64,000 nt of DNA from Alphaproteobacteria bacterium (GTDB lineage Bacteria; Pseudomonadota; Alphaproteobacteria; GCA-2731375), in NCBI GenBank assembly GCA_040223615.1, contig JAVKFY010000027.1, forward strand, positions 1,220-65,219, read 5' to 3'. The notes under the pieces were generated by a model. That model worked only from the letters and a program-made list of their open reading frames with translations. It was not told the origin of the DNA and did no database searches. The number at the start of each line of letters is the position of its first letter. The stretch's first letter is position 1. The translations under genes and the position numbers were made by a program. Shown piece by piece: positions 343 to 13,449 of the stretch.

Positions 343-2064
343 TCAGCTACACGCCGCGCTCTCGCCCGCATCCTCTTTCACCGCCGGAAAGCGCATCGAG
401 TCGGGCAGCCAGTCGCGGCCCTTGATGTCGTCGCCGGACGCATCGTCGCCAAGCTCGGCACAGCGCTTGAAGTGCCGGACCAACCCGGCCACCAGTGCGG
501 TCTTGCTGGTGTCCTTGAAGCTGCCCAGCCGGGAGGTACCACCGCTTTCCGCAGCGATGTCGGCCAATTGGTCCTTGCGGCGACCGGACAGGAACACGGT
601 ATCGGGTCGCCAGCACGTCTTCATGTCCACTGCCAGATCGACGGCAACCCGGTTGAACAGGCTCTCGCGGGTGTCCAGCACGTCGATGTCGTTTTGCCCG
701 AAGGTCAGGACCGTCAACAGCAGGTGCAGCCGCTCCAGATCGTCATCGGACAGGGCCGAAACGGCCTGATAGAGACCGACAGACGAGCCATGCTGGCGGG
801 ACAGCCTCGACCAGGCGCAGTCCTCGTCGTCTACCTCCGGCACCAGCAGCGTCAGCAGGTGACGGGCCTCGGCCTCCACGGCAGCGTAGGATGCTGACGG
901 TTCCTCCATCTCGGCACTGAGCGAAAGCGCCGAATGGGCATCTGTCCGGATGCGCGATGAGAAGTCATAGCCGCCCAGCATCTGCACCACGGCGATCTCC
1001 CGTGCCTTGCGCGGATTGGCCAGTAGTGCCGCCTGCACGGCCATCGTCTTGTGGGCGGCGATGTAGCGCAGCATCGGCTTTGAGTATTCAGGCTTCGGCT
1101 TGGGCGCGGCAGGCGCTTCGGCGGTTTCCGCCGCAACTTTCTCGGAGACGGTCGGCTCGGCCAACCCCTCCCTGACCTCGACACGTCCGCTCGGGCAGAA
1201 GTGAATGACCACCCCGGCCTCGTCGTCGTCCTCGGCCTCGTCGTACTGCCACCACGGCACGTGACCCGCCTGCACGACTTCAACCCATGCCGCGCTTTCC
1301 CGGTGTCGGGCGGCGAGCGCCTCGACGGCTTCGGCCTGCAACCGCAGGAACTGCTCTGCGTCATCGAAGAAGGTACTTTCCTCGCTGCCGAACAGGTCGG
1401 TGGAGAAGGTGCCGTCGTAGCGCTCAAGATCGAAGATCGCCAGCGCCACGCTCGGCTTTTCCCCGGTGAGGAGGTCGCGGATGTTCTCGGCGTCGTAGTG
1501 CCAGCCTTCCTCCAGCCGTGCGATCACGCCGCGCTGCTGTTCGTGCGTCCCCAGCGTCATCGCCTCGGCTACGGCAAGACTAAGGTCGCCGCTGCGCACC
1601 ATCTCCCTCGCCTCGGCACACAGCCCTGCGAGCGCCAGCCGCCGCTTGACGGTCAGCGCGCTCATCCCGGCCTTGGCCGCGATGTCCTCGATGTCGCCGC
1701 CGCCGTTCATCAACCCGGCGAATGCCTCGGCTTCATCCATCGCGTTCAGCGGTTCACGCTGGACGTTCTCGACGGTGGCGAGCCGCAGCGCGTCCCCGTT
1801 GTTCAAGCCCTTGCGGACTTCCACGGCGACCGGGAAGTCAGCGGCGATGTCGCCGCTCCCCGCCAGTAGCTGCATCGCCCGATAACGGCGCTCGCCGGAC
1901 ACGATCTCCCACTTGCGGCCCTTGCGCCGCACGACAAGGTTCTGCAACAGGCCGTCGGCCCTGATGGAAGCGGCCAGCCCTTCGATGGCGGCCACGTCCG
2001 CCGCCTTACGGGGATTGGCCTTCGGCGGCAGTAGCTGCCCCAGCTTTACGGTCTCTAACGTCAT
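343..2064 (-). CDS. ParB/Srx-like nuclease domain protein (573 aa), island-type
   Basis: N-terminal ParB/sulfiredoxin-like motifs (…NLVVRRKGRKWEIVSGERRYRA…) with a long C-terminal extension. GGAG 8 nt upstream of the ATG at 2062-2064. Confidence 0.7.
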   Translation of the reverse strand: MTLETVKLGQLLPPKANPRKAADVAAIEGLAASIRADGLLQNLVVRRKGRKWEIVSGERRYRAMQLLAGSGDIAADFPVAVEVRKGLNNGDALRLATVENVQREPLNAMDEAEAFAGLMNGGGDIEDIAAKAGMSALTVKRRLALAGLCAEAREMVRSGDLSLAVAEAMTLGTHEQQRGVIARLEEGWHYDAENIRDLLTGEKPSVALAIFDLERYDGTFSTDLFGSEESTFFDDAEQFLRLQAEAVEALAARHRESAAWVEVVQAGHVPWWQYDEAEDDDEAGVVIHFCPSGRVEVREGLAEPTVSEKVAAETAEAPAAPKPKPEYSKPMLRYIAAHKTMAVQAALLANPRKAREIAVVQMLGGYDFSSRIRTDAHSALSLSAEMEEPSASYAAVEAEARHLLTLLVPEVDDEDCAWSRLSRQHGSSVGLYQAVSALSDDDLERLHLLLTVLTFGQNDIDVLDTRESLFNRVAVDLAVDMKTCWRPDTVFLSGRRKDQLADIAAESGGTSRLGSFKDTSKTALVAGLVRHFKRCAELGDDASGDDIKGRDWLPDSMRFPAVKEDAGESAACS

Positions 2065-2619
2065 GGTCTTGCTCCTTTGGTCAGTTGGCGATGCTCAACG
2101 GCCCCATGTCCCCAACGGACACACGCCCGCGCATCAACCTCTGCCCAGCGGCGAGCGACCCCAGACCTTCAAACTGCGACCGCAGGGAGCACCTTCAGCG
2201 GGGTCGCGCCGACCCCCGGCAGGCGACAAGGAAGCCGCCCGCAGGGGTATTCGCCCCAACACGGGAGGCCGCCGCAGGCGGCCGAATGGAGCGGGCCGGG
2301 GCGAACGGCGACCTTGGCTTAGCCCTGCCGGAGTCGGCATAAGCTGTGGCCAGAGGGAACAGCGCGGTAGCGCGCCTCAACCGCAGCCCGAAGGGCCGAC
2401 CGTACCGGGGCGTTGCGGGGTGTCCCCGCTCGAAGGGGGTGTGTCGAAGACCCCGGGCTGAGACCAGGGGGAAGACTTTCCCCTCACAGATATCGACCGA
2501 AAGGAACTCGATCACGACAATACATGCAGTCATCGATAGGGATTGGGCCGATTGCCGGAACCGTCTCATCGAAGCACCGCGACGGTGCCGCCGTGGATGG
2601 ACAAGACGGCGGACATTGC

Positions 2620-2689
2620 TTCGTTCAAATGTGCTTTAGATGATCATCGATTTGATATATAAGACTTGGTAGATTCAGAAAGATGCTAA
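2620..2689 (+). promoter_or_regulatory. AT-rich putative promoter region upstream of the Qat operon
   Basis: Abrupt drop to ~35-40% GC (tgatcatcgatttgatatataagacttggtagattcagaaagatgctaaa) immediately before the qatA ATG at 2690, in an otherwise ~68% GC genome. Confidence 0.3.
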
Positions 2690-4555
2690 ATGTGGTCGGA
2701 TAACGAAACAAATAGAGATTTCCTGAACTTCCGTACCGTAGCCGTCACGGCTGCGGAAATGATAAGTCAGGCTAACGGTCAGCCCCTGTCGCTCGGGGTC
2801 TCGGGTAATTGGGGTGTTGGAAAGTCGTCAATGATTCGCTTGATTCGGGACGAACTGGAGTCCCGCAGCGATAAGACGTTCCTCACGGTCGAGTTCAATG
2901 CTTGGCTGTACCAAGGATTCGACGACGCACGCGCCGCGCTAATGGAAACCATTGCCAATGCACTACTGGCACACGCAAAGGACAACCAGACTGCCGTCGA
3001 CAAAGCGACAGAGTTCCTGAAGCGGGTGAACTGGGTGCGAGCAGCCGGTCTGGCGGTTGGGTCCGGCATGTCCATGGCTTTCGGACTACCACCGACCGGA
3101 CTTCTTGGAGAAGCGGTGCGCACCTACCAGGGGCTTGCCGATGGAGAGGTGACGCAGGAGGACTTGGATGCGGCAAAGGCAACGGGTTCCAATGCTGGCA
3201 AAGCCGGATCGTCACTGATCAAGCAAGCGCCTCAGACAACGCCGCCGCAAGAAATCCAGGACCTGCGTCGCCACTTTAGCGACACCCTCAAGGATATGGA
3301 CATTACTTTGGTAGTGTTCATTGATGACCTGGACCGCTGCCTACCAAATACGGCCATCGCTACTCTCGAAGCAATTCGGCTGTTCCTGTTCCTGGAGCAC
3401 ACTGCATTCATTATTGCAGCCGATGACAAGATGATTAGGCGCGCTGTACGGGCGCATTTCCAGTCCGTCGACCTCGACGATGAACTGGTGACCAATTATT
3501 TCGATAAGTTGATCCAGGTTCCACTTCGAGTCCCGCCCCTGGGTACCCAGGATGTACGCGCCTATCTGATGCTATTATTCATTGAGAATAGCGAACTTTC
3601 GCAGGAGAAGAGAGACTCCTTGCGCGAGGATATCTGCACGCAACTGGGTCAGACGTGGCTCGGCAAGAGAGTGGATCGGGCCTTCGTCGCGGGGTTGATC
3701 AAAGAGTGCCCGGAGCAACTGTCGCATCAGCTTGATCTTGCCGATCGGCTCGCGCCGATCATGACAACCTCTCCGCAGATTTCAGGTAACCCTCGGCTAA
3801 TCAAGCGGTTCTTGAACACCCTGTCGATTCGCATGTCGATCGCCCGAAGTCAGAATGTCCCTGCCGATGAAGCCGCTCTGGCCAAGATGCTGCTATTTGA
3901 GCGCTGTGGCAGCGAGGCCGCCTATGCAGATTTGGTGCGAGCCATCAACGAACATGACAAGGGCAAGCCACTGTTCCTCGGCCCGTGGGAGGAGGCTGTG
4001 GCGTCGGGCGGCGAACTACCCGAGACGATGCCGCAAGCATGGCAAGACGAATTCGTGAAGGACTGGTTGGCGCTCTCACCACCTTTCGCAGACCTGGACC
4101 TGCGGGCCGTCGCCTACGTCAGCCGCGAGCACCTGCCGATCATTGCCGCGGCAGACCAACTCAGCCCGGAGGGCGCTGATCTGCTCGGCGCTCTGTATGC
4201 AGTGAAAGAGCAGCCCAGCAAGGCGCTTGCAGTCAAGCTCAAGACGCTGAGCAAGCGCGAGATCACGTTCATCATGGCACGCCTGCTGGACCGGGCGCGC
4301 ACCGTCGATACCTGGGGTAGGCCGCCTATTCTGAATGCCTGCCTGACGGTGATTGAGGCAGACGACGGCCAGGCTGAACCCCTCGCAAATTTCCTCCGTC
4401 GTGATATTCCACTGGCTCGGCTCGAACCGTCGATCGTCGTCCTGCTTGCACACAAGACATGGGCGAAGGCCGTGCTGACGCATTGGGCTAACCAAAGCGA
4501 AACACCCGGTCCGGTGAAGAAGGCGATAGCCAGCGAAGCGAAGGGCAAGAAGTAG
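2690..4555 (+). CDS. qatA: QatA-like KAP-family P-loop NTPase
   Basis: Walker A GVSGNWGVGKSS near the N-terminus. 621 aa. First gene of four translationally coupled ORFs. Low GC relative to the host. Confidence 0.8.
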   Translation: MWSDNETNRDFLNFRTVAVTAAEMISQANGQPLSLGVSGNWGVGKSSMIRLIRDELESRSDKTFLTVEFNAWLYQGFDDARAALMETIANALLAHAKDNQTAVDKATEFLKRVNWVRAAGLAVGSGMSMAFGLPPTGLLGEAVRTYQGLADGEVTQEDLDAAKATGSNAGKAGSSLIKQAPQTTPPQEIQDLRRHFSDTLKDMDITLVVFIDDLDRCLPNTAIATLEAIRLFLFLEHTAFIIAADDKMIRRAVRAHFQSVDLDDELVTNYFDKLIQVPLRVPPLGTQDVRAYLMLLFIENSELSQEKRDSLREDICTQLGQTWLGKRVDRAFVAGLIKECPEQLSHQLDLADRLAPIMTTSPQISGNPRLIKRFLNTLSIRMSIARSQNVPADEAALAKMLLFERCGSEAAYADLVRAINEHDKGKPLFLGPWEEAVASGGELPETMPQAWQDEFVKDWLALSPPFADLDLRAVAYVSREHLPIIAAADQLSPEGADLLGALYAVKEQPSKALAVKLKTLSKREITFIMARLLDRARTVDTWGRPPILNACLTVIEADDGQAEPLANFLRRDIPLARLEPSIVVLLAHKTWAKAVLTHWANQSETPGPVKKAIASEAKGKK

Positions 4556-5466
4556 TGGGTACGTCGTCTTCCAGCAAAGGACCGGGAGGTGGCGTACCTC
4601 TGATACCGCCCTGGGTTCCGCCTGCTCCGCCGCAGAACCCGCCCGCGCCACCGCAGCAGCCTGCGCCAGCGCCCGGAGGCCCGCCGTCTCAGCCGAAGCC
4701 ATCTACGCCGCCGTCTCAGCCTGCACCGGGCCAGCCCGCACAGGTCGCAGCGCCACAACCCGCACCGGCAAGACCACCGGCGGGACCCAAGGCACCACCT
4801 CGCCGCTTTGCGGGCGCACGACAAAGCCTTGGCAGGTTTGCGAAGACTGGTTCGCAGGGTGATCTCGGCAGAGCACTAGGCCACTACACACGGACCGGCC
4901 TCGGCGGCGCTGGCCGCGCGGCAGGCCGTATGAACCGGACGGCGCAGCGCGCCGGACAACTCTACGGTGTCCTCGACGCACTGCGGACAGGCACGCCGAC
5001 ACCGGTCGATCTGGGCGTCAGCGTCGCAACGCTTACCGGCCTTCCTGCCCGCGACGTGGCCGATCGCGTCGCCAACGCACTGCATCCACCGGATGGAACG
5101 CAGGATGCGGAAGCTGGGCGAGATGCCATGGCACGCGCGTTGGCAGACGTGCAGAACGCCGCACCGGCCGCCGATCTGACCTCCCCCACGCCGGAACAGA
5201 TCGGCGTCATCATTGAACGCTACGTTGCCTACGACCTCTGCAATCGCATCGAGTTGGATATCGGCCAAGCTGTGCTGGACAAAGCGCCGAGCTATGCCGA
5301 GGGCATGCGACGCCTTGAGCAGATTGAGCGCTATGTGCGCGAGAAAGTGTCGGCACAGTTCAGAAGCAGGGAGGACCAGGGTCAGCGGCTGACCAGGCAG
5401 AGCGCCGAAGGTCTATCCCGAGGAGTGATCGAGGACACATTTGAAGTCTTCGAGGAGTACGTGTGA
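4555..5466 (+). CDS. qatB: QatB-like protein with Pro-rich N-terminal region
   Basis: GTG start overlaps the qatA stop (TAGTG). N-terminus MGTSSSSKGPGGG followed by PPxPP low-complexity sequence, then a globular C-terminal half. Position between the KAP ATPase and QueC-like genes matches Qat organisation. Confidence 0.65.
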   Translation: MGTSSSSKGPGGGVPLIPPWVPPAPPQNPPAPPQQPAPAPGGPPSQPKPSTPPSQPAPGQPAQVAAPQPAPARPPAGPKAPPRRFAGARQSLGRFAKTGSQGDLGRALGHYTRTGLGGAGRAAGRMNRTAQRAGQLYGVLDALRTGTPTPVDLGVSVATLTGLPARDVADRVANALHPPDGTQDAEAGRDAMARALADVQNAAPAADLTSPTPEQIGVIIERYVAYDLCNRIELDIGQAVLDKAPSYAEGMRRLEQIERYVREKVSAQFRSREDQGQRLTRQSAEGLSRGVIEDTFEVFEEYV

Positions 5467-6734
5467 TGCGCGTTCACTGTGCTCCGGCGGGAATCAAGAC
5501 GAAGCGATCGGACCTGCGGTACGTGCTCTACGAGCACTCCACCGATCCCGCGGTCGGCTCGATTGGCCCATCCATCATTTCCAGCGTCCGGAAATTCGGC
5601 CTGGCACCCTCAGCGAGGGCATGGGACTTCCTCTCAATCGCGCTCTCGGTCATCGGTGCCGATGAGGGCTGCACGCGAGCTACCAGTCCGGATGGATGGA
5701 CACGGGAAATCGAGCTGACCGTTTCTGTTGCCGATCCGAAGTTCTGGACATCGCAAACAGATCTGCTTGCCGCAGCGCTCTGCTTCCTGACCGGCGATAT
5801 CTGGTATCTGACGTTCGTGGCCGATGGCCTTTCGCCAACGCCACCGAAACACGCAGAGCCAAGGCAGGAGGACGCCGTCTGTCTATTGTCCGGCGGCATG
5901 GACAGCTTGATTGGCGCTCTGGATCTTCGGGCCGCTGGCAAAAGCCTCCTGTTCGTCAGCCAAGTGGCCAAAGGCGACAAGAAGACGCAGAGTTTCTTGG
6001 CGCAGGCGGTCGGTGGCAACCACGGACACCTGCAACTCAACCATCTGGTGCATCCGCCCGGTCCGTCCGAGCGCTCACAACGTGCACGCTCGCTGATCTT
6101 TCTAGGTTTCGGTGTCCTCGCAGCCACCAGCCTTCAGACCTATACCGGCGGCGCACCCGCCGACCTGTACATGCCGGAGAACGGGTTCATCAGTATCAAT
6201 GTAGCGCTGACACCGTTGCGCCTGGGTAGCTTGAGCACGCGCACAACGCACCCCTACTTCATCGGCCTGATCCAACAACTGTTGGGCAACGCAGGCATAA
6301 ACGTGCGTATCGTCAACCCGTATCAGTTCAAGACCAAGGGTGAGATGCTTGTTGGCTGCCAGAATCAGGCGTTCTTGAAAAAGCACATCGGCATCACCAC
6401 AAGCTGCGGCCGTTACGCCCGCAGTGGCTTCATGCATTGCGGTCGCTGCGTCCCCTGCTTGGTTAGACGCTCAGCCTTTCACCGTTGGGGTACCGACCCG
6501 ACAGCCGCTTACAAGTTCGATGACCTGTCAAAGCCCGACCACAGGCATCGTGACTTCGACGATGTACGCTCCGTCGGCATGGCCATCGAGATGGTACGCA
6601 AACGGGGTTTCGATCGCTGGGCGGGCGGCGCGATCAATGCAGCCCAGCTTGGCGACACCGCGCCGTATCGGGCGGTGGTGCAAAGGGGCCTGAAGGAAAT
6701 GAGCACCTACCTGAAGGCTGTCGGTGCCCTGTGA
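5463..6734 (+). CDS. qatC: QatC-like QueC-family PP-loop ATPase
   Basis: PP-loop motif LLSGGMDSLIGA. C-terminal Cys cluster CGRYARSGFMHCGRCVPC resembles the QueC zinc site. Start overlaps the qatB stop (GTGTGATG). Confidence 0.85.
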   Translation: MMRVHCAPAGIKTKRSDLRYVLYEHSTDPAVGSIGPSIISSVRKFGLAPSARAWDFLSIALSVIGADEGCTRATSPDGWTREIELTVSVADPKFWTSQTDLLAAALCFLTGDIWYLTFVADGLSPTPPKHAEPRQEDAVCLLSGGMDSLIGALDLRAAGKSLLFVSQVAKGDKKTQSFLAQAVGGNHGHLQLNHLVHPPGPSERSQRARSLIFLGFGVLAATSLQTYTGGAPADLYMPENGFISINVALTPLRLGSLSTRTTHPYFIGLIQQLLGNAGINVRIVNPYQFKTKGEMLVGCQNQAFLKKHIGITTSCGRYARSGFMHCGRCVPCLVRRSAFHRWGTDPTAAYKFDDLSKPDHRHRDFDDVRSVGMAIEMVRKRGFDRWAGGAINAAQLGDTAPYRAVVQRGLKEMSTYLKAVGAL

Positions 6735-7504
6735 TCGATTTCCACTGCCATGTCGATCTCTTCCCTGACCCCAAGGCCGTGCTGGCGGAGATCGAGGCGC
6801 GCGGCATGTATGTCCTTGTGGTCACGACGACCCCAAAGGCGTGGAAAGGAACGTCGCAGTTGGTGGCCGGGCACAAGCGGGTACGGGTGTCTCCGGGCCT
6901 GCATCCTGAGCTGGTGGCCGAGCGGCACACAGAGATGCCGCTGCTGTGCCATCTTGTCGGACAGTCGCCCTATGTGGGCGAAGTTGGCCTGGATGGAAGC
7001 CCCCAGCACAAGGGCAGCTACAAGCGCCAGGAAGAGGTGCTGGCACGAGTGCTTGGGGAGTGCAGAACACTGGGGGGCCGCATCCTCAGTATACATTCAC
7101 GCGCCGCAGCGAGCGGCGTCCTCGACCTAATTGAGGAACACTCGGGACTAGGCGTTCCTGTCCTGCACTGGTTTTCGGGCCGACCACGGGAACTGGACCG
7201 TGCAATTTCTCTTGGGTGCTGGTTCAGTGTGGGTCCGGCGATGACCCGCACGAAGAAAGGTCGCGCACTGGTCGAAGCGATGCCTGCTGACAGAGTACTT
7301 ACGGAAACCGATGGTCCGTTTGCACTGGCACAGAACAAATCCGGCAGCCTTATGCCTTGGGATGTGAGCCAAGCAGAGCGTGATCTGGCAGACTGCTGGC
7401 GGCAGGAAGAAGCTGAGGCTCGGGACACATTGATGTCTAACCTGCGCCGCCTTACGGACATTGCTAATGGAATCCCGCTGAAGCCTCGGACTGTCACTTT
7501 GTGA
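6731..7504 (+). CDS. qatD: QatD-like TatD-family metal-dependent DNase
   Basis: N-terminus MIDFHCHVDLF is the TatD signature. GTG start overlaps the qatC stop (GTGA). Confidence 0.85.
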   Translation: MIDFHCHVDLFPDPKAVLAEIEARGMYVLVVTTTPKAWKGTSQLVAGHKRVRVSPGLHPELVAERHTEMPLLCHLVGQSPYVGEVGLDGSPQHKGSYKRQEEVLARVLGECRTLGGRILSIHSRAAASGVLDLIEEHSGLGVPVLHWFSGRPRELDRAISLGCWFSVGPAMTRTKKGRALVEAMPADRVLTETDGPFALAQNKSGSLMPWDVSQAERDLADCWRQEEAEARDTLMSNLRRLTDIANGIPLKPRTVTL

Positions 7505-7617
7505 GAAGCGCACCCGTTTGCAGGTGCAAGCTCACCAAACTGGGTTGCTGATCATTCTGGAATCACGTCGCGCCTTCGACTATGTTTCCGCCACCCAATA
7601 GGAATCGGAGTCCCCGC

Positions 7618-7911
7618 ATGCCTCGCCGAAAATCCGTCGCCATCGATGAGAAGAACCTGAAAAAGGGTGAACTGCGCAAGCTCAACGCACTGCGCAAGTC
7701 GCTTGGCCCCGATATCGCCGAAAGAGCGTTCTCCGAATGGTATTCGGCCAGGCCGGAGCTTAGTGAAGACATTCCGGACCGCGGCGCAGAGATGATCGCC
7801 GAAGCGGTCTACAAGCTGGTAGATGGCAAGAACCTCCAAATTCCACGTGGAGGCTATTTGGTGCGTCGTGGCCGCGGGCGGGTTATTGTCGAAAGATTGA
7901 ACTCAGACTAA
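7618..7911 (+). CDS. Small basic hypothetical protein (97 aa; alternative upstream start at 7582)
   Basis: GGAG 8 nt upstream of the ATG at 7618. Lys/Arg-rich N-terminus (PRRKSVAIDEKNLKKGELRKLNALRK). Low GC. Lies immediately upstream of the DUF3800-like gene. Confidence 0.45.
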   Translation: MPRRKSVAIDEKNLKKGELRKLNALRKSLGPDIAERAFSEWYSARPELSEDIPDRGAEMIAEAVYKLVDGKNLQIPRGGYLVRRGRGRVIVERLNSD

Positions 7912-7973
7912 CCTATACTCTTGCGGCCGTTCCTCGACCGCGCGATGGCAGGAACGTTGGTTTCTAAAGAAGT

Positions 7974-9050
7974 ATGACAACTATCTATCTGGACGAGACT
8001 GGATTCACAGGCGAGGACCTGCTTGCAAAAGACCAGCCTGTTTTCGTCCAGGCAACAATGAACTACAATCAAGAAGAAGCTCGCGATCTAATCTCAACCT
8101 ACTTCCCTGCCTTGAAGGCAGATGAACTTAAATACTCTCGATTGCGCAGGAATCCCAAGCACAGAGAGAGTGTCATAAGACTAATTGAGCGGGTATCTTC
8201 GGATTCCGACCGATCGGCCACGTGGATTGCGCATAAGGAGTTCGCTCTTGTAACGCTCCTTGTCGACTGGTGGGTTGAGCCACTCGCACACGAGAGCGGC
8301 TTCAATCTGTACGAGGATGGCGCAAATCTGGCGATGGCTAATCTGTTCTTCTACTGTATGGAAGGCTTCTGGCATCGGGGGTTTCGTACGAAGCTCTTGT
8401 TCCAGTTTCAAAGAATGATGCGAACCAGAAACCCGCAATACTTCCGGGAGTGTCGGGCTTTCATCAACCGAGAACGGGGGCGAACCGATGACAACCGAGA
8501 AGAGATCATACGATACCTCTGGCCCTCATTCGAACTACTCGGATTCTCTCATGTGAGAGGGTTGCCGAACCAAGTGTTGGATATCGCACTACCTGGTTTG
8601 GTCGCTCTCGGGCAAACGTGGCGATCACGCGACGAAGGTCACTGGTCGGTTGTGCATGATCAGTCGTCCAATATGGCGAAGCAGAAATGGCTATGGGACG
8701 CTCTGTCTTCGCCGGAAGTGGCTGCCGCGCGATTTGACGGCCCTGCTGGCCCTCAGCATTTCCCCATGAATGTTACCGAGACCCGGTTCGCCGACTCGAA
8801 GAGCGAAATCCAGCTTCAACTCTGCGACGTTCTCGCCGGAGCTACAGCGACATACCTAAGGCGCTCCGTGGAACAAGTCGATGATGTGGGCTATGCGGAG
8901 ACATTGGCGCGGGCAGGAATCGACAACCTAATCATAGGCGGCCTCTGGCCAAGGCCCGAGGTGTCGCCGGATGAGCTGGGCATGCGGGGCTGGGATGGCA
9001 ACAAGGCCATTGAATGGATCAGTGATCAGATAGCGAGAAGCAGAAGGTAG
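7974..9050 (+). CDS. DUF3800-like protein (358 aa)
   Basis: Starts MTTIYLDETGFTG (DUF3800-type Y-x-D-E-T-G). C-terminal IQLQLCDVLAGA motif. ~45% GC, strongly atypical for this genome. Confidence 0.65.
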   Translation: MTTIYLDETGFTGEDLLAKDQPVFVQATMNYNQEEARDLISTYFPALKADELKYSRLRRNPKHRESVIRLIERVSSDSDRSATWIAHKEFALVTLLVDWWVEPLAHESGFNLYEDGANLAMANLFFYCMEGFWHRGFRTKLLFQFQRMMRTRNPQYFRECRAFINRERGRTDDNREEIIRYLWPSFELLGFSHVRGLPNQVLDIALPGLVALGQTWRSRDEGHWSVVHDQSSNMAKQKWLWDALSSPEVAAARFDGPAGPQHFPMNVTETRFADSKSEIQLQLCDVLAGATATYLRRSVEQVDDVGYAETLARAGIDNLIIGGLWPRPEVSPDELGMRGWDGNKAIEWISDQIARSRR

Positions 9051-9099
9051 CAGGGACTCACGCGAGCTTCCGTCAGGAGCACGAAAACGCCGATCAGGA

Positions 9100-9179
9100 T
9101 GGTGCGGGCGGGGGGACTCGAACCCCCACGGGCGCATGCCCTACGGATTTTCGTACCGACTACGGCTTTCGCCGCCCGC
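9100..9179 (-). tRNA. tRNA-like element (possible tRNA pseudogene or att-site remnant) lacking a canonical anticodon arm
   Basis: Minus strand reads GCGGGCG...GGGGGTTCGAGTCCCCC-CGCCCGC-A-CCA. That is a perfect 7-bp acceptor stem, a canonical T-arm/T-loop and an encoded CCA. No 5-bp/7-nt anticodon stem-loop or D-arm can be drawn in the 45 nt between them. Confidence 0.35.
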
Positions 9180-9372
9180 CAGCCTAGGCGGTTTGCGGTC
9201 TGGACTATCCCTTCACCGTATCCGGGCTTCCGCCCGGATGTAGGTGCTGCCCGTCTAGTCTCTACACCTTCCCGGCCGCTGGCCGGGCTTGGCTCGGGAT
9301 TGCCATTTCACAGGTTCCCCCGAGTTTGAGCAGTTCTACTCCTGCGGTTTCCCGCAAGGCACTCAAGCGTCT

Positions 9373-9410
9373 CAAGTCCGTTGCGTCTGCCAGTTCCGCC
9401 ACGCCCGCAC
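9373..9410. repeat. Direct repeat copy A (att-like) flanking the integrase
   Basis: caagtccgttgcgtctgccagttccgccacgcccgcac. 33/39 identity with copy B at 10783-10820, same orientation. Confidence 0.55.
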
Positions 9411-9451
9411 ACCTTCTGTATAAAGGCGGCTCCGGCGACCTGCAAAACCTA

Positions 9452-10660
9452 TTAGGGCTGCGCTGCGCCTGCCCCCGTCTCGCCTTCACCCACGGCCTGT
9501 TTAGTCTTCGGCCGCTCCCGGCGGACGTTGATGGCGGCAACATCAAGGGCCGTCCGCAGATGAACGGCGTAGTACTTTTCGATCATCTCCACGCTGGTGC
9601 GGCAGTTCTTGGCGATCTGGTAGATGTCCGCACCCTCCATGAGCCGAAGGCATATGTAGGTGTGGCGCAGGCTGTAGGCGGTCCTCCGGTTGCCCTCCCG
9701 ATCGAACTTCAACGCCTCCTCAGCCAGCACCGCATTGAGCATCTCGCGGTGGTGGATCGGGAACAGCCGCGCCGTCATCGTCTCGGGCGCATTCCGCTTC
9801 AGGATGCGCCGATAGGGCGTCACGGCCCCCGGCATGCTCATGCAGTAGCCGACGCCTCGCTTGCCCCGAACGACGATCTCCAGGATTTCCTCGTCGCTGT
9901 CATCGACGACCTTGACGTCCCGGAACTCCAGTCTGGAAGCCTCGTCAGGGCGCAAGCCCGTGTTGGCCATGAACAGCACGTAGTCGTGTAGCTGCTCCGC
10001 GTGCCATTGCCAGCGCTTGCCCTTGGCCTCCCTCGCCCGCTTGCGCGTCGCGGTGTAGAGCTGCCGATACTCGTCGGGCGAGAACCAAGCCCGATGCGAG
10101 ACCTTGCCGGAGCTGCGGTACGGCTCCGACAGATCCGGCAGGTGTTGCAGCCAGCCGTGGCGCAAGGCGGTCTTGAGGACCTGGCGCAGGCAGACGATTT
10201 CCTGATGCATGGTGTTCCGGGCGGGCGGCTTGCCGTAAAGCTCCATTGCCTTTTGACGGCGGTGAATGCGGTACTCCTGCACCTGACCGGGCGATATCTC
10301 TGAAAGCCCCATGCTGCCGAAGAACGGGATCAGGTGAAGCTTCAGGCGGCGCTTGTGCCCGGCCACATACTGGGCGTTGCGCTCCCCCTCGGTGATGATC
10401 TCGTACTCGCGCTCGAACTGTACCGCCGCGTCCTTGAAGGTCTTCTCGGTCTTGATCTCGCCGCTGCGCAGCTTGCCACGCAGATCAAGGTACCAGTCCT
10501 CCGCTACCTCCTTCGCCCGCGCCAGGCTTTGCTCCTTGGTGGTCGCCCGCCTGTTCTTGCCCGCCTCGTAGGCCGAACACTGCCAGAAGCGGCTGCCCGG
10601 CCGCTTGTATACGTGCAGCCGACCGCCCATCAGAGAGAAGGTTCCGGCGCTCTCGCTCAT
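9452..10660 (-). CDS. int: Tyrosine-type site-specific recombinase / phage integrase
   Basis: 402 aa. C-terminal catalytic residues in the LRHTYICL…Y context (R..H..RH..Y). AT-rich promoter region upstream at 10661-10780. Confidence 0.9.
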   Translation of the reverse strand: MSESAGTFSLMGGRLHVYKRPGSRFWQCSAYEAGKNRRATTKEQSLARAKEVAEDWYLDLRGKLRSGEIKTEKTFKDAAVQFEREYEIITEGERNAQYVAGHKRRLKLHLIPFFGSMGLSEISPGQVQEYRIHRRQKAMELYGKPPARNTMHQEIVCLRQVLKTALRHGWLQHLPDLSEPYRSSGKVSHRAWFSPDEYRQLYTATRKRAREAKGKRWQWHAEQLHDYVLFMANTGLRPDEASRLEFRDVKVVDDSDEEILEIVVRGKRGVGYCMSMPGAVTPYRRILKRNAPETMTARLFPIHHREMLNAVLAEEALKFDREGNRRTAYSLRHTYICLRLMEGADIYQIAKNCRTSVEMIEKYYAVHLRTALDVAAINVRRERPKTKQAVGEGETGAGAAQP

Positions 10661-10782
10661 GCCGCTGCTCCGGGCAGAAATATGTGTAAGCTTTGTGGAA
10701 GCCTATCGGAGACCCTAATATTTTGTCAAGACATTGATTTATATGACTTTCTTCACGACATCTAGTGCGTAAAGCGCGATTT

Positions 10783-10820
10783 TAAGTCCCTTGCGTCTAC
10801 CAATTCCGCCAAGCCCGGAC
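10783..10820. repeat. Direct repeat copy B (att-like) at the island/core junction
   Basis: taagtcccttgcgtctaccaattccgccaagcccggac. Abuts the 3' end of the esterase gene (stop at 10832-10834). Confidence 0.55.
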
Positions 10821-11654: not shown

Positions 11655-12428
11655 CTACGCCACCTCGGCGCGCGACGGCAGGGTCGAGATCGCGTCGGCG
11701 TAGGTGCGCAGTGCCTCGCGGCCGCGCGGGCTGGGGGCGTAGACGCCGCGCCTGACACGCTCGAACCAGCCATAGACGTCGCGCTGCAGGATGCCGGCGG
11801 CGCGGCCGACCCCGGTCTGCGCCCGCAGCATCGCCAGCGACAGCTCACCGGCGCGATCCAGCGCGGCCAGGCAGCGCAGCGCGTCCTGGCGGTAGGCGGT
11901 CATGACTTTCACCCGGTTGGCCCCGCCGGTGTTGGGGTCGCCGACGCGGTGCGCGAACTCCTTCAGCAGCCGCCGGCGGCGGCGCGGATTGCCGCGCGGC
12001 ACGTAGGGCACGGGGTCGAGGATCGCGCGCGCTTCGCCATGCTCGACCAGCAGGATCCCGAGCCCGATGCGCCGGCACAGCGCCTTGATGTCGCGCCAGC
12101 GCCGACCGAGCCGGGGCACCGCGATGTAGACCGCGTCGGTGAGCTTGAGCCGGTTCACGCCCTGCAGCAGCAGGTCGAGGTTGAAGCGCACCTTGAGCTC
12201 GACCACGACGACCGCGCCGTCGCGCACCGCGACCACGTCGCAGCCCTCGACCTCCGCCTTCACGTCATAGCCCTGGCCGGCCAGGAACGCCTTCACCGGC
12301 GCGTAGAGTTCGGCCTCGCGCAACCGCCTCGCCTCCGAATCTCCCGCGATGGTAGCCGGACCGGCACGCAATTTGCTCCTGATCGCCAGGGCGCGCCGGT
12401 ATCGCGCGTCGGCGGAGGGCAAACGCAT
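11655..12428 (-). CDS. Conserved hypothetical protein with PD-(D/E)xK-like motif
   Basis: …CDVVAV…VVVELKV… resembles a restriction-endonuclease-like core, with a C-terminal Arg-rich region. Its start codon overlaps the divergent EF-hand gene start (gcATGa read on both strands). Confidence 0.5.
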   Translation of the reverse strand: MRLPSADARYRRALAIRSKLRAGPATIAGDSEARRLREAELYAPVKAFLAGQGYDVKAEVEGCDVVAVRDGAVVVVELKVRFNLDLLLQGVNRLKLTDAVYIAVPRLGRRWRDIKALCRRIGLGILLVEHGEARAILDPVPYVPRGNPRRRRRLLKEFAHRVGDPNTGGANRVKVMTAYRQDALRCLAALDRAGELSLAMLRAQTGVGRAAGILQRDVYGWFERVRRGVYAPSPRGREALRTYADAISTLPSRAEVA

Positions 12429-13449
12429 GACGATTCACGGTATCGGCCACGGTCACGGTCACCATTTCCACGGACTCGGGCGGCACAGCTTCGGCCGGGC
12501 GGACGGCGACGACGACGGCAAGCTCAGCCGCGAGGAGCTCGAAACTGCCGGGCAAGATTTGCCGGGCGGCAAGAAACGCCTGGCGCGGCTGGAGGCGCGG
12601 TTCGACAAGATCGACTCGGACGGCGACGGGGCGCTGACCCGCACGGAGATTCGCGACGGCATCCGCGCCGACATGCGCGACCTGCTGTTGCGCAGCCAGG
12701 AGGCGCGCGACACGCGCCGCGCGGAACGGCTGATGGACAAGGCCGACGGCGACGACGACGGCCTGCTGAGCGCCGACGAGCTCGACGCATTCGCCGAGAA
12801 CGTGCGGCCCGGCAGCCGCATGGCGGCACGGGTCGAGCTGCTGCAACGTTTCTTCGATGCCGCCGACGGCGACGAGAATGGCGGGCTCAGCACCAGGGAG
12901 ATCGCCGGCTTCCTGGGCGAGGTGCGCCAGGCGTATGGCGATTTTGTCGACGGCCTGCGCGCCGACGACGCCTTCGGCCAGTTCCTGGCCGAGCGGTTCG
13001 GCCCCAAGGCGACGACCGACGAGGACGGCGCGGCGCCCGACAGCACGGTCACGACGACGACCACGACTGTCACCACGACGACCGAGCCGGCCAGCGAGCC
13101 CGACGAGACCACGGCACCGGCACCGATCCCGTTCCACGGCAAGCGCTACGGCTTCTTCGGCGAGCGCGGCGACCTGTTGCTGCGCTACTTCGACCAGGCC
13201 GATGGCGACGACGATGGCGGCCTGACCAAGGACGAGATCAATGGCTTCTTCAAGGAACTGAAGGGCGCGTTCCGCGATTTCGTCTCCGGCTTGCGCGAGC
13301 AGGACGCCTTCGGTCAGTTCCTCGACGCCCGCTTCGCCGCCCCGGCGGAGAGCGACGAAGCGCCGGAGGAAGCGGGCGACGACGGCGAGATCACGACCAC
13401 CGTCACCACCACGACAACGACCACCACCACCACGGTGACGACCGGTTAG
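12427..13449 (+). CDS. EF-hand calcium-binding repeat protein with Thr-rich tracts
   Basis: Five canonical EF loops (DGDDDGKLSREE, DSDGDGALTRTE, DGDDDGLLSADE, DGDENGGLSTRE, DGDDDGGLTKDE). Internal duplication. TTTTTVTTTTE and TTTVTTTTTTTTTTVTTG tracts. Confidence 0.8.
   Translation: MTIHGIGHGHGHHFHGLGRHSFGRADGDDDGKLSREELETAGQDLPGGKKRLARLEARFDKIDSDGDGALTRTEIRDGIRADMRDLLLRSQEARDTRRAERLMDKADGDDDGLLSADELDAFAENVRPGSRMAARVELLQRFFDAADGDENGGLSTREIAGFLGEVRQAYGDFVDGLRADDAFGQFLAERFGPKATTDEDGAAPDSTVTTTTTTVTTTTEPASEPDETTAPAPIPFHGKRYGFFGERGDLLLRYFDQADGDDDGGLTKDEINGFFKELKGAFRDFVSGLREQDAFGQFLDARFAAPAESDEAPEEAGDDGEITTTVTTTTTTTTTTVTTG

Follow-up and report, generated by a model that had tools for sequence, protein, structure and literature searches.

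The segment from 2690 to 7504 of the 64,000-nt window, the whole stretch of DNA analysed here, from a GenBank MAG of an uncultured alphaproteobacterium, carries, with a probability of about 95%, a canonical and intact anti-phage operon of the QatABCD type, present as cargo of a chromosomal island that was acquired horizontally. Four ORFs fill this segment in the same direction (Table 1), exactly at the coordinates given in an earlier, sequence-only reading that had proposed a QatABCD system. The PADLOC and HMM searches suggested in that reading returned matches to the four Qat models, to KAP_NTPase, QueC and TatD_DNase in Pfam and, together with the NCBIfam models for QatB, QatC and QatD and the matches to solved chains, uphold the proposal. 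Each of the four proteins aligns with its PADLOC Qat model over nearly the whole length, far beyond chance, and the curated equivalog cut-offs of NCBIfam are passed by QatB, QatC and QatD and missed by QatA. Every residue experimentally shown to matter in characterised homologues, at key positions defined in PMC13279940, PMC13639016, PMC13376578 and PMC13434339, is present at the locus.

Table 1. Features of the Qat operon and its surroundings, in window coordinates.
Feature	Coordinates	Strand	Description
ParB-like protein	343..2064	-	573 aa, MEQ9640218.1; Pfam ParB_N (E 5e-14) and HTH_ParB
AT-rich leader	2560..2689	+	upstream of qatA; presumed promoter region
qatA	2690..4555	+	KAP-family P-loop NTPase, 621 aa; GenBank MEQ9640219.1
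qatB	4555..5466	+	303 aa, GTG start; GenBank MEQ9640220.1
qatC	5466..6734 (5463 if GTG start)	+	QueC-like PP-loop ATPase, 422 aa (423 aa)
qatD	6731..7504	+	TatD-family (type II, HxH) metal-dependent nuclease, 257 aa
97-aa hypothetical protein	7618..7911	+	MEQ9640223.1; context, outside Qat
DUF3800 protein	7974..9050	+	358 aa; Pfam DUF3800 (E 9.5e-6), phrog_12991 (E 1.1e-43, full length)
tRNA-Leu(UAA) gene	9100..9408	-	with 222-nt group I intron (9152-9373); ARAGORN, introns allowed
Tyrosine site-specific integrase	9452..10660	-	402 aa, MEQ9640225.1; phrog_1 integrase (E 4.6e-32)
Truncated intron-less tRNA-Leu(UAA) 5′ half	10778..10818	-	read directly; stops just past the anticodon loop

The locus was compared with 82 related Qat loci, with up to 8 kb of flanking DNA where the contig allows. 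The A-B-C-D gene order is found in every related locus with enough flank, save seven in which QatA-B-C are present with no detectable QatD. No related QatC was found that is more than 60% identical to the QatC encoded here, and QatA, QatC, QatD, the 97-aa ORF, the DUF3800 protein and the integrase are each the sole member of their own 90%-identity cluster. The Qat call is correct but ordinary, a textbook copy of a known system. Qat systems have been described since 2020 and had their structures dissected in 2026, the family already counts hundreds of operons, and QatB, QatC and QatD at this locus have already been named by GenBank's PGAP pipeline.

QatA aligns over residues 1-591 with positions 1-590 of the 593 in the PADLOC model PDLC02210 (E about 9.7e-158, 524 bits) and matches Pfam KAP_NTPase (E 1.6e-66), as anticipated when it was first described as a KAP P-loop NTPase. 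Walker A (G39NWGVGKS46) and Walker B (VVFIDDLDR, 208-216) motifs are present and, in an alignment of 43 homologues, G39, G44, K45, S46, D212, D213, D215 and R216 are near-invariant. The NCBIfam QatA model NF041923 matches residues 1-587 over positions 2-600 of 628 with 432.6 bits (E 2.9e-129), against a curated equivalog cut-off of 600 bits. We read this shortfall as a sign of a narrow NCBIfam model rather than of non-membership, because PDLC02210 fits over its full length and the 43 homologues, all from Qat operons, can be aligned and keep both Walker motifs. The generic GenBank name of MEQ9640219.1, 'P-loop NTPase fold protein' rather than QatA, follows from the sub-cut-off score, and the KAP NTPase can, in practice, be renamed QatA. 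Sequence comparison with solved structures found no relative of QatA.

QatB, the presumed protein substrate of QatC, matches the PADLOC QatB model over residues 1-300 (E 2.9e-43, 147 bits), the NCBIfam model with 141.7 bits (curated cut-off 100) and the solved chains 9zee_A (E 1.4e-15, residues 1-298) and 9vll_A (E 2.1e-16). Its N-terminus is MGTSSSSKGPGGGVPLIPPWVPP; the MGTS start recurs in 61 of 63 related loci, and all 61 compared have P18-x-W20. A disordered, Pro-rich N-terminal tail of ~94 aa is followed by an alpha-helical domain of ~209 aa, and the ~300-aa protein with a Pro-rich N-terminal half foreseen earlier is indeed encoded, with 303 residues and 32 prolines within the first 100 versus 9 within the other 203. 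Measured up to the conserved Phe95 column, the tail has 94 residues (family range 46-96) and ranks third in length and first in Pro fraction (0.34) among 61 proteins, and the C-terminal domain, at 209 aa, lies within the family range of 200-211. GenBank gives QatB an identical 303-aa start, whereas the Logan gene call shortens it to 178 aa with loss of the essential MGTS terminus; QatB start sites are prone to mis-calling.

QatC, the signature enzyme of the Qat system (residues are numbered for the 423-aa protein initiated from the GTG at 5463), matches the PADLOC QatC model (E 1.9e-103, 345 bits), the NCBIfam model (342.6 bits, curated cut-off 280) and the solved chains 9zee_B (E 1.2e-63, residues 39-422, an alignment that takes in the N- and C-terminal extensions) and 9vlk_A (E 1.2e-62). 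Failure to align to QueC-family models, named beforehand as grounds for dismissing the assignment, is not observed, as Pfam QueC (PF06508) matches with 30.2 bits (cut-off 22), over residues 265-342 only. The SGGMDS motif and C-terminal Cys cluster noticed earlier are found as the PP-loop S143GGMDS148 and the four Zn cysteines, C326xxC329xxC332 plus C315. S143, G144, G145, D147, S148, R209, F213, R253, T261, C315, C326, C329 and C332 do not vary in any of 70 homologues, T259 is present in 67 of the 70, and the loop residues R253/L254 (R272/L273 in P. aeruginosa) are conserved. The basic patch of the P. aeruginosa QatB-QatC interface is not kept position for position but, as these columns vary across the family, the mismatch is uninformative.

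Pfam QueC and TatD_DNase domains might also be encountered if genes of housekeeping 7-deazaguanine (queuosine) metabolism lay by chance next to those of an ATPase and a TatD repair nuclease with no link to them. Such an origin is exceedingly improbable, and the model scores and residue pattern already rule it out, with 30 bits for the partial QueC match versus 343-345 bits for QatC models over the full length, and with Thr259/Thr261 in place of the Tyr/Asp pair by which true QueC recognises CDG, as in all QatC. QatC-specific N- and C-terminal extensions are present, the locus encodes the Qat-operon-specific QatB and no other queuosine-pathway gene, and the genes are translationally coupled in an order kept in related loci with enough flank. 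A canonical QueC of queuosine biosynthesis was likewise rejected as the identity of QatC itself. Other forms of QueC-containing immunity, a type IV CBASS, in which Cap9/Cap10 accompany a CD-NTase, or a Dpd-type cluster for 7-deazaguanine modification of DNA, have in common with this locus a QueC-like enzyme and, by analogy with Cap9-CdnD, a Gly2-bearing protein partner. However, PADLOC, Pfam and NCBIfam gave no CD-NTase or TGT/Cap10 match for any protein encoded from 343 to 10660 and no DpdA match in the locus, and the partner here matches QatB, whose structure shows no relation to CD-NTases, leaving these systems a negligible probability.

QatD matches the PADLOC model nearly end to end (E 6.5e-87, 289 bits), the NCBIfam model with 317.1 bits (curated cut-off 230), Pfam TatD_DNase (E 2.4e-44) and the solved chains 3gg7_A (E 3e-73) and 9xsn_A (E 6e-59), the last deposited as 'Hydrolase TatD' and linked to the published A. 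baumannii QatD by residue numbering. The MIDFHCHVDLF signature noted earlier is present, and the His/Asp ligand set, whose loss had been named as counter-evidence, is complete. The nine catalytic and metal-ligand residues, H5, H7, H58, E84, D88, H122, H146, E192 and D194, correspond in order to H8, H10, H60, E86, D90, H124, H148, E194 and D196 of A. baumannii QatD, and none of them varies among 64 homologues.

As read directly from the sequence, qatA and qatB overlap by 1 nt (TAGTG) and qatC and qatD by 4 nt (GTGA). The qatB-qatC junction, GTGTGATG, gives a 4-nt overlap from the GTG at 5463, or 1 nt from the ATG at 5466, which lies 8 nt past a GAGGAG Shine-Dalgarno sequence (5452-5457) and is the start chosen by GenBank (422 aa). 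All three junctions are thus coupled, as had been proposed. They are also the modal overlaps of related Qat loci, and overlapping junctions are a trait of the whole Qat family, not peculiar to this locus. An Rfam scan of the leader gave no match and therefore no preQ1-type riboswitch, and a terminator scan identified none for the operon, including after qatD.

A scan of the leader for sigma-70 consensus sequences gave no promoter match, which, with a foreign codon usage that could limit expression, would be consistent with an inactive relic in which the frames are intact but expression or function is lost. The scan, however, addresses one promoter type and yields few matches even when the sequence is shuffled (on average 1.8 sites per shuffle). 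Decay would be expected to bring frameshifts or lost catalytic residues, whereas the four ORFs are full length relative to the models, the invariant family residues are all retained and the coupled junctions are intact; a relic is therefore very unlikely.

The island that holds the intact operon spans at least 12 kb, is lower in GC and has a mosaic composition. The GC content is 0.596 at 2501-10700 versus 0.69 at 11001-64000, and GC3 is 0.65-0.72 in the qat genes versus ~0.9 in host genes; the integrase and ParB-like genes have a GC3 of ~0.84, and a further 1.1 kb to the left of the window has a GC content of 0.50-0.56. The low-GC island of the sequence-only reading is thus confirmed but its adjacency to an integrase is not, as the integrase is 1.9 kb downstream, with two genes and a tRNA gene between it and qatD. 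It has weak matches to Pfam Phage_int_SAM_3 and Phage_integrase. The ParB-like protein also matches TIGR03734 PRTRC_parB (E 1e-27), below the model cut-off, and large ParB-like proteins are typical of integrative or conjugative elements. The atypical composition, together with the nearby integrase, tRNA gene and ParB-like gene, supports horizontal acquisition of the operon.

The tRNA-Leu(UAA) gene between the Qat cassette and the integrase is split by a group I intron, which hides it from default tRNA scans; it was missed by standard tRNA and Rfam scans. ARAGORN also supports the assignment on the spliced exons, and the intron matches Rfam Intron_gpI over the full model length (47.1 bits, E 2.4e-10). 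Across the integrase from this gene there is a second, truncated tRNA-Leu half, identical at 30 of 35 nt to the 5′ exon (9374-9408) and likely the scar of an integration event.

The 97-aa ORF and the DUF3800 gene follow qatD on the same strand after short spacers, of 113 nt from the stop of qatD to the ATG at 7618 and of 62 nt ahead of the DUF3800 gene, have similarly low GC3 (0.60-0.63), and no terminator is detected past qatD, an arrangement that would fit a six-gene Qat variant in which both products serve as functional accessories in this lineage. Neither protein has a homologue in the 82 related Qat loci with their flanks of up to 8 kb, and the DUF3800 family occurs alone in P2-like phages and also as a partner of retron type VII, so that it looks like independent cargo; a six-gene system is, on this evidence, very unlikely. 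The 97-aa protein has no match in Pfam, NCBIfam, PADLOC or PHROGs, and the DUF3800 protein, of an RNase-H2-like family and with no PADLOC match, is possibly the product of an independent defence gene. Likewise, there is little likelihood that lineage-specific features, the polyproline QatB tail or these two genes as an added effector, alter how Qat works here. The tail might serve as a stiff polyproline spacer or as a platform for binding instead of being just a flexible tether, but no observation requires either this or an added effector.

For the four-gene QatABCD system, a working model can be drawn by homology from the systems characterised in P. aeruginosa, E. coli and A. baumannii. The genes present, their order and intactness and every key residue can be read from the locus itself; the homologues supply complex formation, the removal of Met, the finding that G2, the PP-loop and TxT are essential, the activities of QatD and the NDG modification of QatB at low level. 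The four genes would be translated as a coupled unit, because their stop and start codons overlap, and Met1 would be removed from QatB to expose Gly2. In characterised systems, the Gly2 N-terminus of QatB enters the active site of QatC, and defence is lost with G2D or when the tail is deleted (PMC13376578, PMC13639016). By analogy, QatC would bind ATP through the S143GGxDS148 PP-loop, adenylate a carboxylate substrate and pass it to the Gly2 amine of QatB in a deazaguanylation-like N-terminal modification. The substrate may be 7-carboxy-7-deazaguanine or a related molecule, a choice left wide because Thr259/Thr261 replace the Tyr/Asp recognition pair. Published work has not settled which reaction QatC performs: an NDG-modified QatB peptide was seen by one group, at low level, in a homologue (PMC13639016), and another did not reconstitute QatC activity and suspected a different substrate (PMC13279940). 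The QatBC pair would constitute the minimal defence module, with QatD predicted to be a QatB-binding, NTP-inhibited two-metal TatD nuclease with 3′-5′ exonuclease and AP endonuclease activities and QatA an oligomeric, DNA-binding KAP NTPase, each probably widening the range of phages restricted.

The locus thus adds one more diverged alphaproteobacterial example of Qat, with little import beyond correct annotation, and no residue that is essential in the P. aeruginosa, E. coli or A. baumannii systems varies at its evolutionary distance. The same four genes, in the same order, make up QatABCD of P. aeruginosa, for which crystal structures of QatBC are available (9ZEE/9ZEF; Gao, Wassarman & Kranzusch 2026, PMC13279940). 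MGTS and Pro-x-Trp of QatB and SGGxDS and the four Zn cysteines of QatC are kept, and the adenine-binding R233/F237 and the T278/T280 of P. aeruginosa QatC correspond to R209/F213 and T259/T261. The sequences have, however, diverged: the QatB tail is unusually Pro-rich and has ~94 residues (to the Phe95 column) versus 65 aa reported in P. aeruginosa, measures that are not identical, and QatC is ~40 aa shorter overall, with R407/R410/R414 of the C-terminal basic patch not kept position for position. The Gly2 and tail features of the 9VLK/9VLL QatC and QatB-QatC pair (PMC13376578, PMC13639016) are all kept. QatD resembles A. baumannii QatD (9XSN by residue numbering; PMC13434339) and 3GG7 in HxH and in nine identical residues, and the NTP inhibition and dual exonuclease/AP-endonuclease activity of this homologue may extend to it. 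Cap9-CdnD deazaguanylation in type IV CBASS similarly pairs a QueC-like PP-loop enzyme with a partner protein that has its tail in the active site and its Gly2 N-terminus as the target, but here the partner is QatB rather than a CD-NTase, TGT/Cap10 is absent, and QatC differs from Cap9 in having Thr/Thr for the CDG-recognising Tyr/Asp and extra N- and C-terminal domains. With canonical QueC (7-cyano-7-deazaguanine synthase), QatC shares the SGGxDS PP-loop, the Zn Cys cluster and a Rossmann-like core, and is set apart by its partial Pfam match, its recognition pair, its protein partner and its operon context.

The four co-directional ORFs described in the sequence-only reading as a Qat-type operon are present at exactly the coordinates it gave (Table), and the junction strings and peptide motifs that it quoted are all found in the DNA and in the translated ORFs, respectively. 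In a PADLOC scan, QatA, QatB, QatC and QatD were matched over nearly the whole of both protein and model, with E values of 9.7e-158, 2.9e-43, 1.9e-103 and 6.5e-87, respectively. The view that this operon is the strongest immune candidate in the window was checked against the other genes of the island and sampled housekeeping neighbours. QatB, QatC and QatD also score above the curated cut-offs of NCBIfam equivalog models; QatA, at 432.6 bits, is below its cut-off of 600. Pfam recognizes KAP_NTPase (1.6e-66) and TatD_DNase (2.4e-44) domains, and a partial QueC match at residues 265-342 of QatC. Among solved structures, a sequence search picked up both deposited QatC chains for QatC (E 1e-63, 1e-62), a pair of QatB chains for QatB (E values near 1e-15) and, for QatD, 3gg7 (E 3e-73) and 9xsn (E 6e-59); it detected no relative of QatA. 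QatC aligns to QueC-family models and QatD keeps the metal-ligand His and Asp residues, the two points on which the earlier interpretation had been staked, and these results support that interpretation: the locus belongs, as a canonical example, to a defence system that has already been described and studied structurally. Its identity is already recognised in public annotation, the exact same proteins being annotated in GenBank on a 65,441-bp contig of the MAG 'Alphaproteobacteria bacterium', and its novelty is nil to minimal.

Features of the qat locus and its surroundings, with positions in the window
Feature	Position	Strand	Length	GenBank protein	Remarks
ParB-like gene	343-2064	-	573 aa	MEQ9640218	ParB family protein; context gene
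GC-rich non-coding stretch	2065-2560		~500 nt		GC 0.66-0.70
qatA	2690-4555	+	621 aa	MEQ9640219	P-loop NTPase fold protein
qatB	4555-5466	+	303 aa	MEQ9640220	QatB
qatC	5463-6734	+	423 aa	MEQ9640221	QatC; 422 aa in GenBank
qatD	6731-7504	+	257 aa	MEQ9640222	QatD
97-aa ORF	7618-7911	+	97 aa	MEQ9640223	hypothetical; context gene
DUF3800 gene	7974-9050	+	358 aa	MEQ9640224	DUF3800 protein; context gene
tRNA-Leu(UAA) with group I intron	9100-9408	-			5' exon 9408-9374, intron 9373-9152, 3' exon 9151-9100
Integrase gene				MEQ9640225	site-specific integrase; context gene
Truncated tRNA-Leu(UAA), 5' half	10778-10818	-			intron-less
EF-hand protein gene	12349-13449	+			just outside the island

The residues that matter in characterised homologues were taken from four 2026 papers (PMC13279940, PMC13639016, PMC13376578, PMC13434339). 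QatB requires an N-terminal MGTS, in which Gly2 is bared by removal of the Met, and a conserved Pro and Trp in its tail (PMC13279940, PMC13639016, PMC13376578); the QatB encoded here begins MGTSSSSKGPGGGVPLIPPWVPP and therefore has G2, P18 and W20. In the QatC of P. aeruginosa, the residues that are essential or invariant comprise S156, D160 and S161 of the PP-loop, the adenine contacts R233 and F237, T278 and T280, which stand in for the Tyr/Asp pair of QueC, and the Zn ligands C334, C354, C357 and C360 (PMC13279940). All have equivalents in the window protein, namely S143/D147/S148, R209/F213, T259/T261 and C315/C326/C329/C332. Similarly, H8, H10, H60, E86, D90, H124, H148, E194 and D196 of A. 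baumannii QatD (PMC13434339) correspond to H5, H7, H58, E84, D88, H122, H146, E192 and D194, and QatA retains Walker A (G39...G44 K45 S46) and Walker B (D212 D213) motifs. The key residues are invariant or nearly so across 70 QatC, 64 QatD and 43 QatA sequences; a position-by-position comparison found the columns of the QatBC basic patch to be variable across the family. That the genes are a decayed relic is disfavoured, as the ORFs are full length and the invariant residues are kept. A housekeeping role in queuosine metabolism is excluded by the model scores, the Thr/Thr pair and the presence of the Qat-specific partner QatB, and assignment to type IV CBASS or Dpd is excluded, as PADLOC, Pfam and NCBIfam gave no CD-NTase, TGT or DpdA match at the locus.

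The three gene junctions overlap. At the A/B junction (TAGTG) one base is common to stop and start, and at the C/D junction (GTGA) the overlap is four bases. The B/C junction reads GTGTGATG, and here the overlap is probably one base (TGATG) rather than four, because the ATG at 5466 follows a GAGGAG Shine-Dalgarno sequence (5452-5457) at ideal spacing and is the start used in GenBank. A QatC-based scan of metagenome and viral contigs returned 82 related loci, the best 60% identical, and in a tblastn search with all island proteins the A-B-C-D order was found wherever the contig is long enough, with the exception of seven distant loci. Junction spacing is a trait of the Qat family, with modal values of -1 nt at A/B (30/57 loci), -4 or -1 nt at B/C (39/40) and -4 nt at C/D (63/73). 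MGTS opens QatB in 61 of the 63 loci where this could be assessed, and residues 18-20 are P-x-W in 61/61. The Pro-rich N-terminal part of QatB, noted from the sequence, is borne out by 32 Pro in residues 1-100 versus 9 in the other 203; the tail, at 94 aa, is the third longest in a family range of 46-96 and, at 34% Pro, has the highest content of 61 (median 20%). This tail is the sole quantitative peculiarity of the window copy and lies at the extreme end of normal variation. In the Logan gene call on identical DNA (contig L001, 6038-6574), QatB starts from an internal ATG at window position 4930 and is 178 aa long, which drops both the tail and the essential MGTS terminus. The GenBank PGAP call (303 aa, from the GTG at 4555) is correct, and the Logan call is a concrete case of the QatB start-site misannotation pointed out in PMC13279940. 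Rfam identified no riboswitch or other structured RNA in the 625 nt that precede qatA or in the spacers beyond qatD, and a promoter and terminator consensus scan of the locus gave nothing informative.

The low GC content that had been attributed to the island holds, at 0.596 for positions 2501-10700 versus 0.69 in the rest of the window, and GC3 is 0.65-0.72 in the qat genes versus ~0.9 in host genes. The foreign stretch is a mosaic in composition: GC is 0.50-0.56 in the 1.1 kb to the left of the window edge, as present in Logan contig L001, GC3 is ~0.84 in the ParB-like and integrase genes, and 0.60-0.72 in the block formed by qat, the 97-aa ORF and the DUF3800 gene. The left border of the island lies beyond the available sequence and the right border probably near 10.78-10.82 kb. 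The island ends were not fixed by an empty-site comparison because, in genome contigs with relatives of the esterase gene beside the tRNA scar, synteny is not conserved and the tRNA is absent. A generic repeat search for att sites gave only pairs at chance level, and the tRNA-half repeat has no 10-nt exact seed. The rest of the window is filled with chromosomal housekeeping genes (purB, purL, nadE, citramalate synthase, type II secretion), and one flanking host gene has its closest relative, at 84% identity, in an uncultured Rhodospirillales MAG. A plasmid origin was rejected on the basis of these genes and of an empty megablast of 2600-7600 against PLSDB. The ParB-like protein has ParB_N and HTH_ParB domains, also matches phrog_7783 and, in NCBIfam, is most similar to the PRTRC-system ParB, below the cut-off; these family matches suggest that the island represents an integrative mobile element, or a derivative of one, rather than a prophage. 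In some of the family scans, minus-strand genes were taken with the first codon cut off and the stop codon included (9452-10657 for the integrase, for instance), with no effect on the HMM results. One other Qat locus, L073, has a ParB-like gene nearby. The GC-rich stretch that separates the ParB-like gene from the AT-rich leader of qatA contains no convincing ORF and no Rfam match, and could be element-related non-coding DNA such as a ParB-binding or transfer-related site. The EF-hand calcium-binding protein encoded just beyond the island resembles XopAW-family type III effectors and lanmodulin at sub-threshold scores.

In up to 8 kb of flank, as far as each contig extends, none of the 82 Qat loci has a homologue of the 97-aa ORF product, the DUF3800 protein or the integrase (tblastn). 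With no such co-occurrence, the 97-aa ORF and the gene for DUF3800 were rejected as Qat accessories, and a six-gene system that takes them in is disfavoured relative to the four-gene operon. The DUF3800 protein has the N-terminal DE motif (YLDETG) and C-terminal QxxD (QLCD) of its family, aligns with phrog_12991 from end to end (E 1e-43) and, likewise end to end, shares 26% identity with a hypothetical protein encoded by Escherichia phage 899 and Yersinia phage GMG73, both of 33.8 kb. In phage 899 the neighbouring genes on its two sides are those for tail-fibre assembly and the tail sheath, which is where the Z/fun cargo hotspot of P2 is located. In type VII retrons, DUF3800 also occurs as the RNase-H2-like partner (PMC7736814). 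There is no reverse transcriptase near the DUF3800 gene and no PADLOC model matches its product; the region is possibly an independent, undescribed single- or two-gene defence candidate beside Qat.

Downstream of the integrase gene, at a distance of 44 nt, a 222-nt group I intron splits a tRNA-Leu(UAA) gene at the classical site, between anticodon positions 34 and 35 (CUU/...g/AAAA). This gene was missed by ARAGORN in default mode and by Rfam at the gathering threshold, the full Intron_gpI model giving 47.1 bits versus a gathering score of 50 (E 2.4e-10). With introns allowed, ARAGORN reports tRNA-Leu(taa) and places a 222-nt intron at position 36; once spliced, the exons form a perfect class II tRNA fold. 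The 7-bp P1 hairpin of the intron contains a U(-1).G wobble; the intron ends in an omega-G and is of the classical 'Leu.3Ug' IC3 type, best known in cyanobacteria and plastids (bioRxiv 10.1101/2020.01.27.920355), here in an alphaproteobacterial MAG. A tmRNA 3' end at 9100-9180 was rejected: the Rfam tmRNA score is just 17.7 bits, and what lies there is the tRNA-Leu 3' exon. The truncated tRNA-Leu half is found immediately past the host esterase stop codon and ~120 nt upstream of where the integrase gene starts. It reads CCGGGCTTGGCGGAATTGGTAGACGCAAGGGACTTAAAATC, after which tRNA similarity ends. It agrees with the intact gene's 5' exon at 30 of 35 nt and is a remnant of a different allele, because its acceptor strand would not pair with the 3' strand of the intact gene. 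A tRNA-Leu 5' half thus stands on each side of the integrase. The displaced 3' half is not in the window, where the sole match is the T-arm of the intact gene. On one reading, an island that brought in the integrase together with an intron-containing tRNA-Leu of its own broke the resident gene within the anticodon loop and took its place; an empty site for such an insertion was not found in the esterase-gene relatives examined.

The sequence prerequisites for the Qat mechanism are present at this locus. By homology with the systems described in PMC13279940, PMC13434339, PMC13639016 and PMC13376578, the helical domain of QatB would bind QatC 1:1 and, after Met removal, the QatB tail would bring Gly2 into the QatC active site, where ATP-driven adenylation of a carboxylate substrate would be followed by transfer to the Gly2 amine. 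QatBC by itself may guard against some phages, with the restricted range presumably widened by QatA, a predicted oligomeric DNA-binding NTPase, and by QatD, which would bind QatB and have two activities that NTPs inhibit, as a 3'-5' exonuclease (Mg-dependent) and as an AP endonuclease (Ca-dependent). Natural loci with only QatABC exist. In a distant clade of metagenome loci (L078, L079, L081, L083-L086), several members of which are from the human gut, QatC is 36-38% identical, QatA and QatB (MGTSASNKGNR...) are present and there is no detectable QatD. In L083 and L086, ~400 nt after qatC, there are convergent genes for a two-component regulator and a histidine kinase, with an FAD oxidoreductase gene beyond them. 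The seven operon forms listed in PMC13434339 do not include a natural QatABC form; such a form fits with QatD being dispensable against some phages (PMC13279940).
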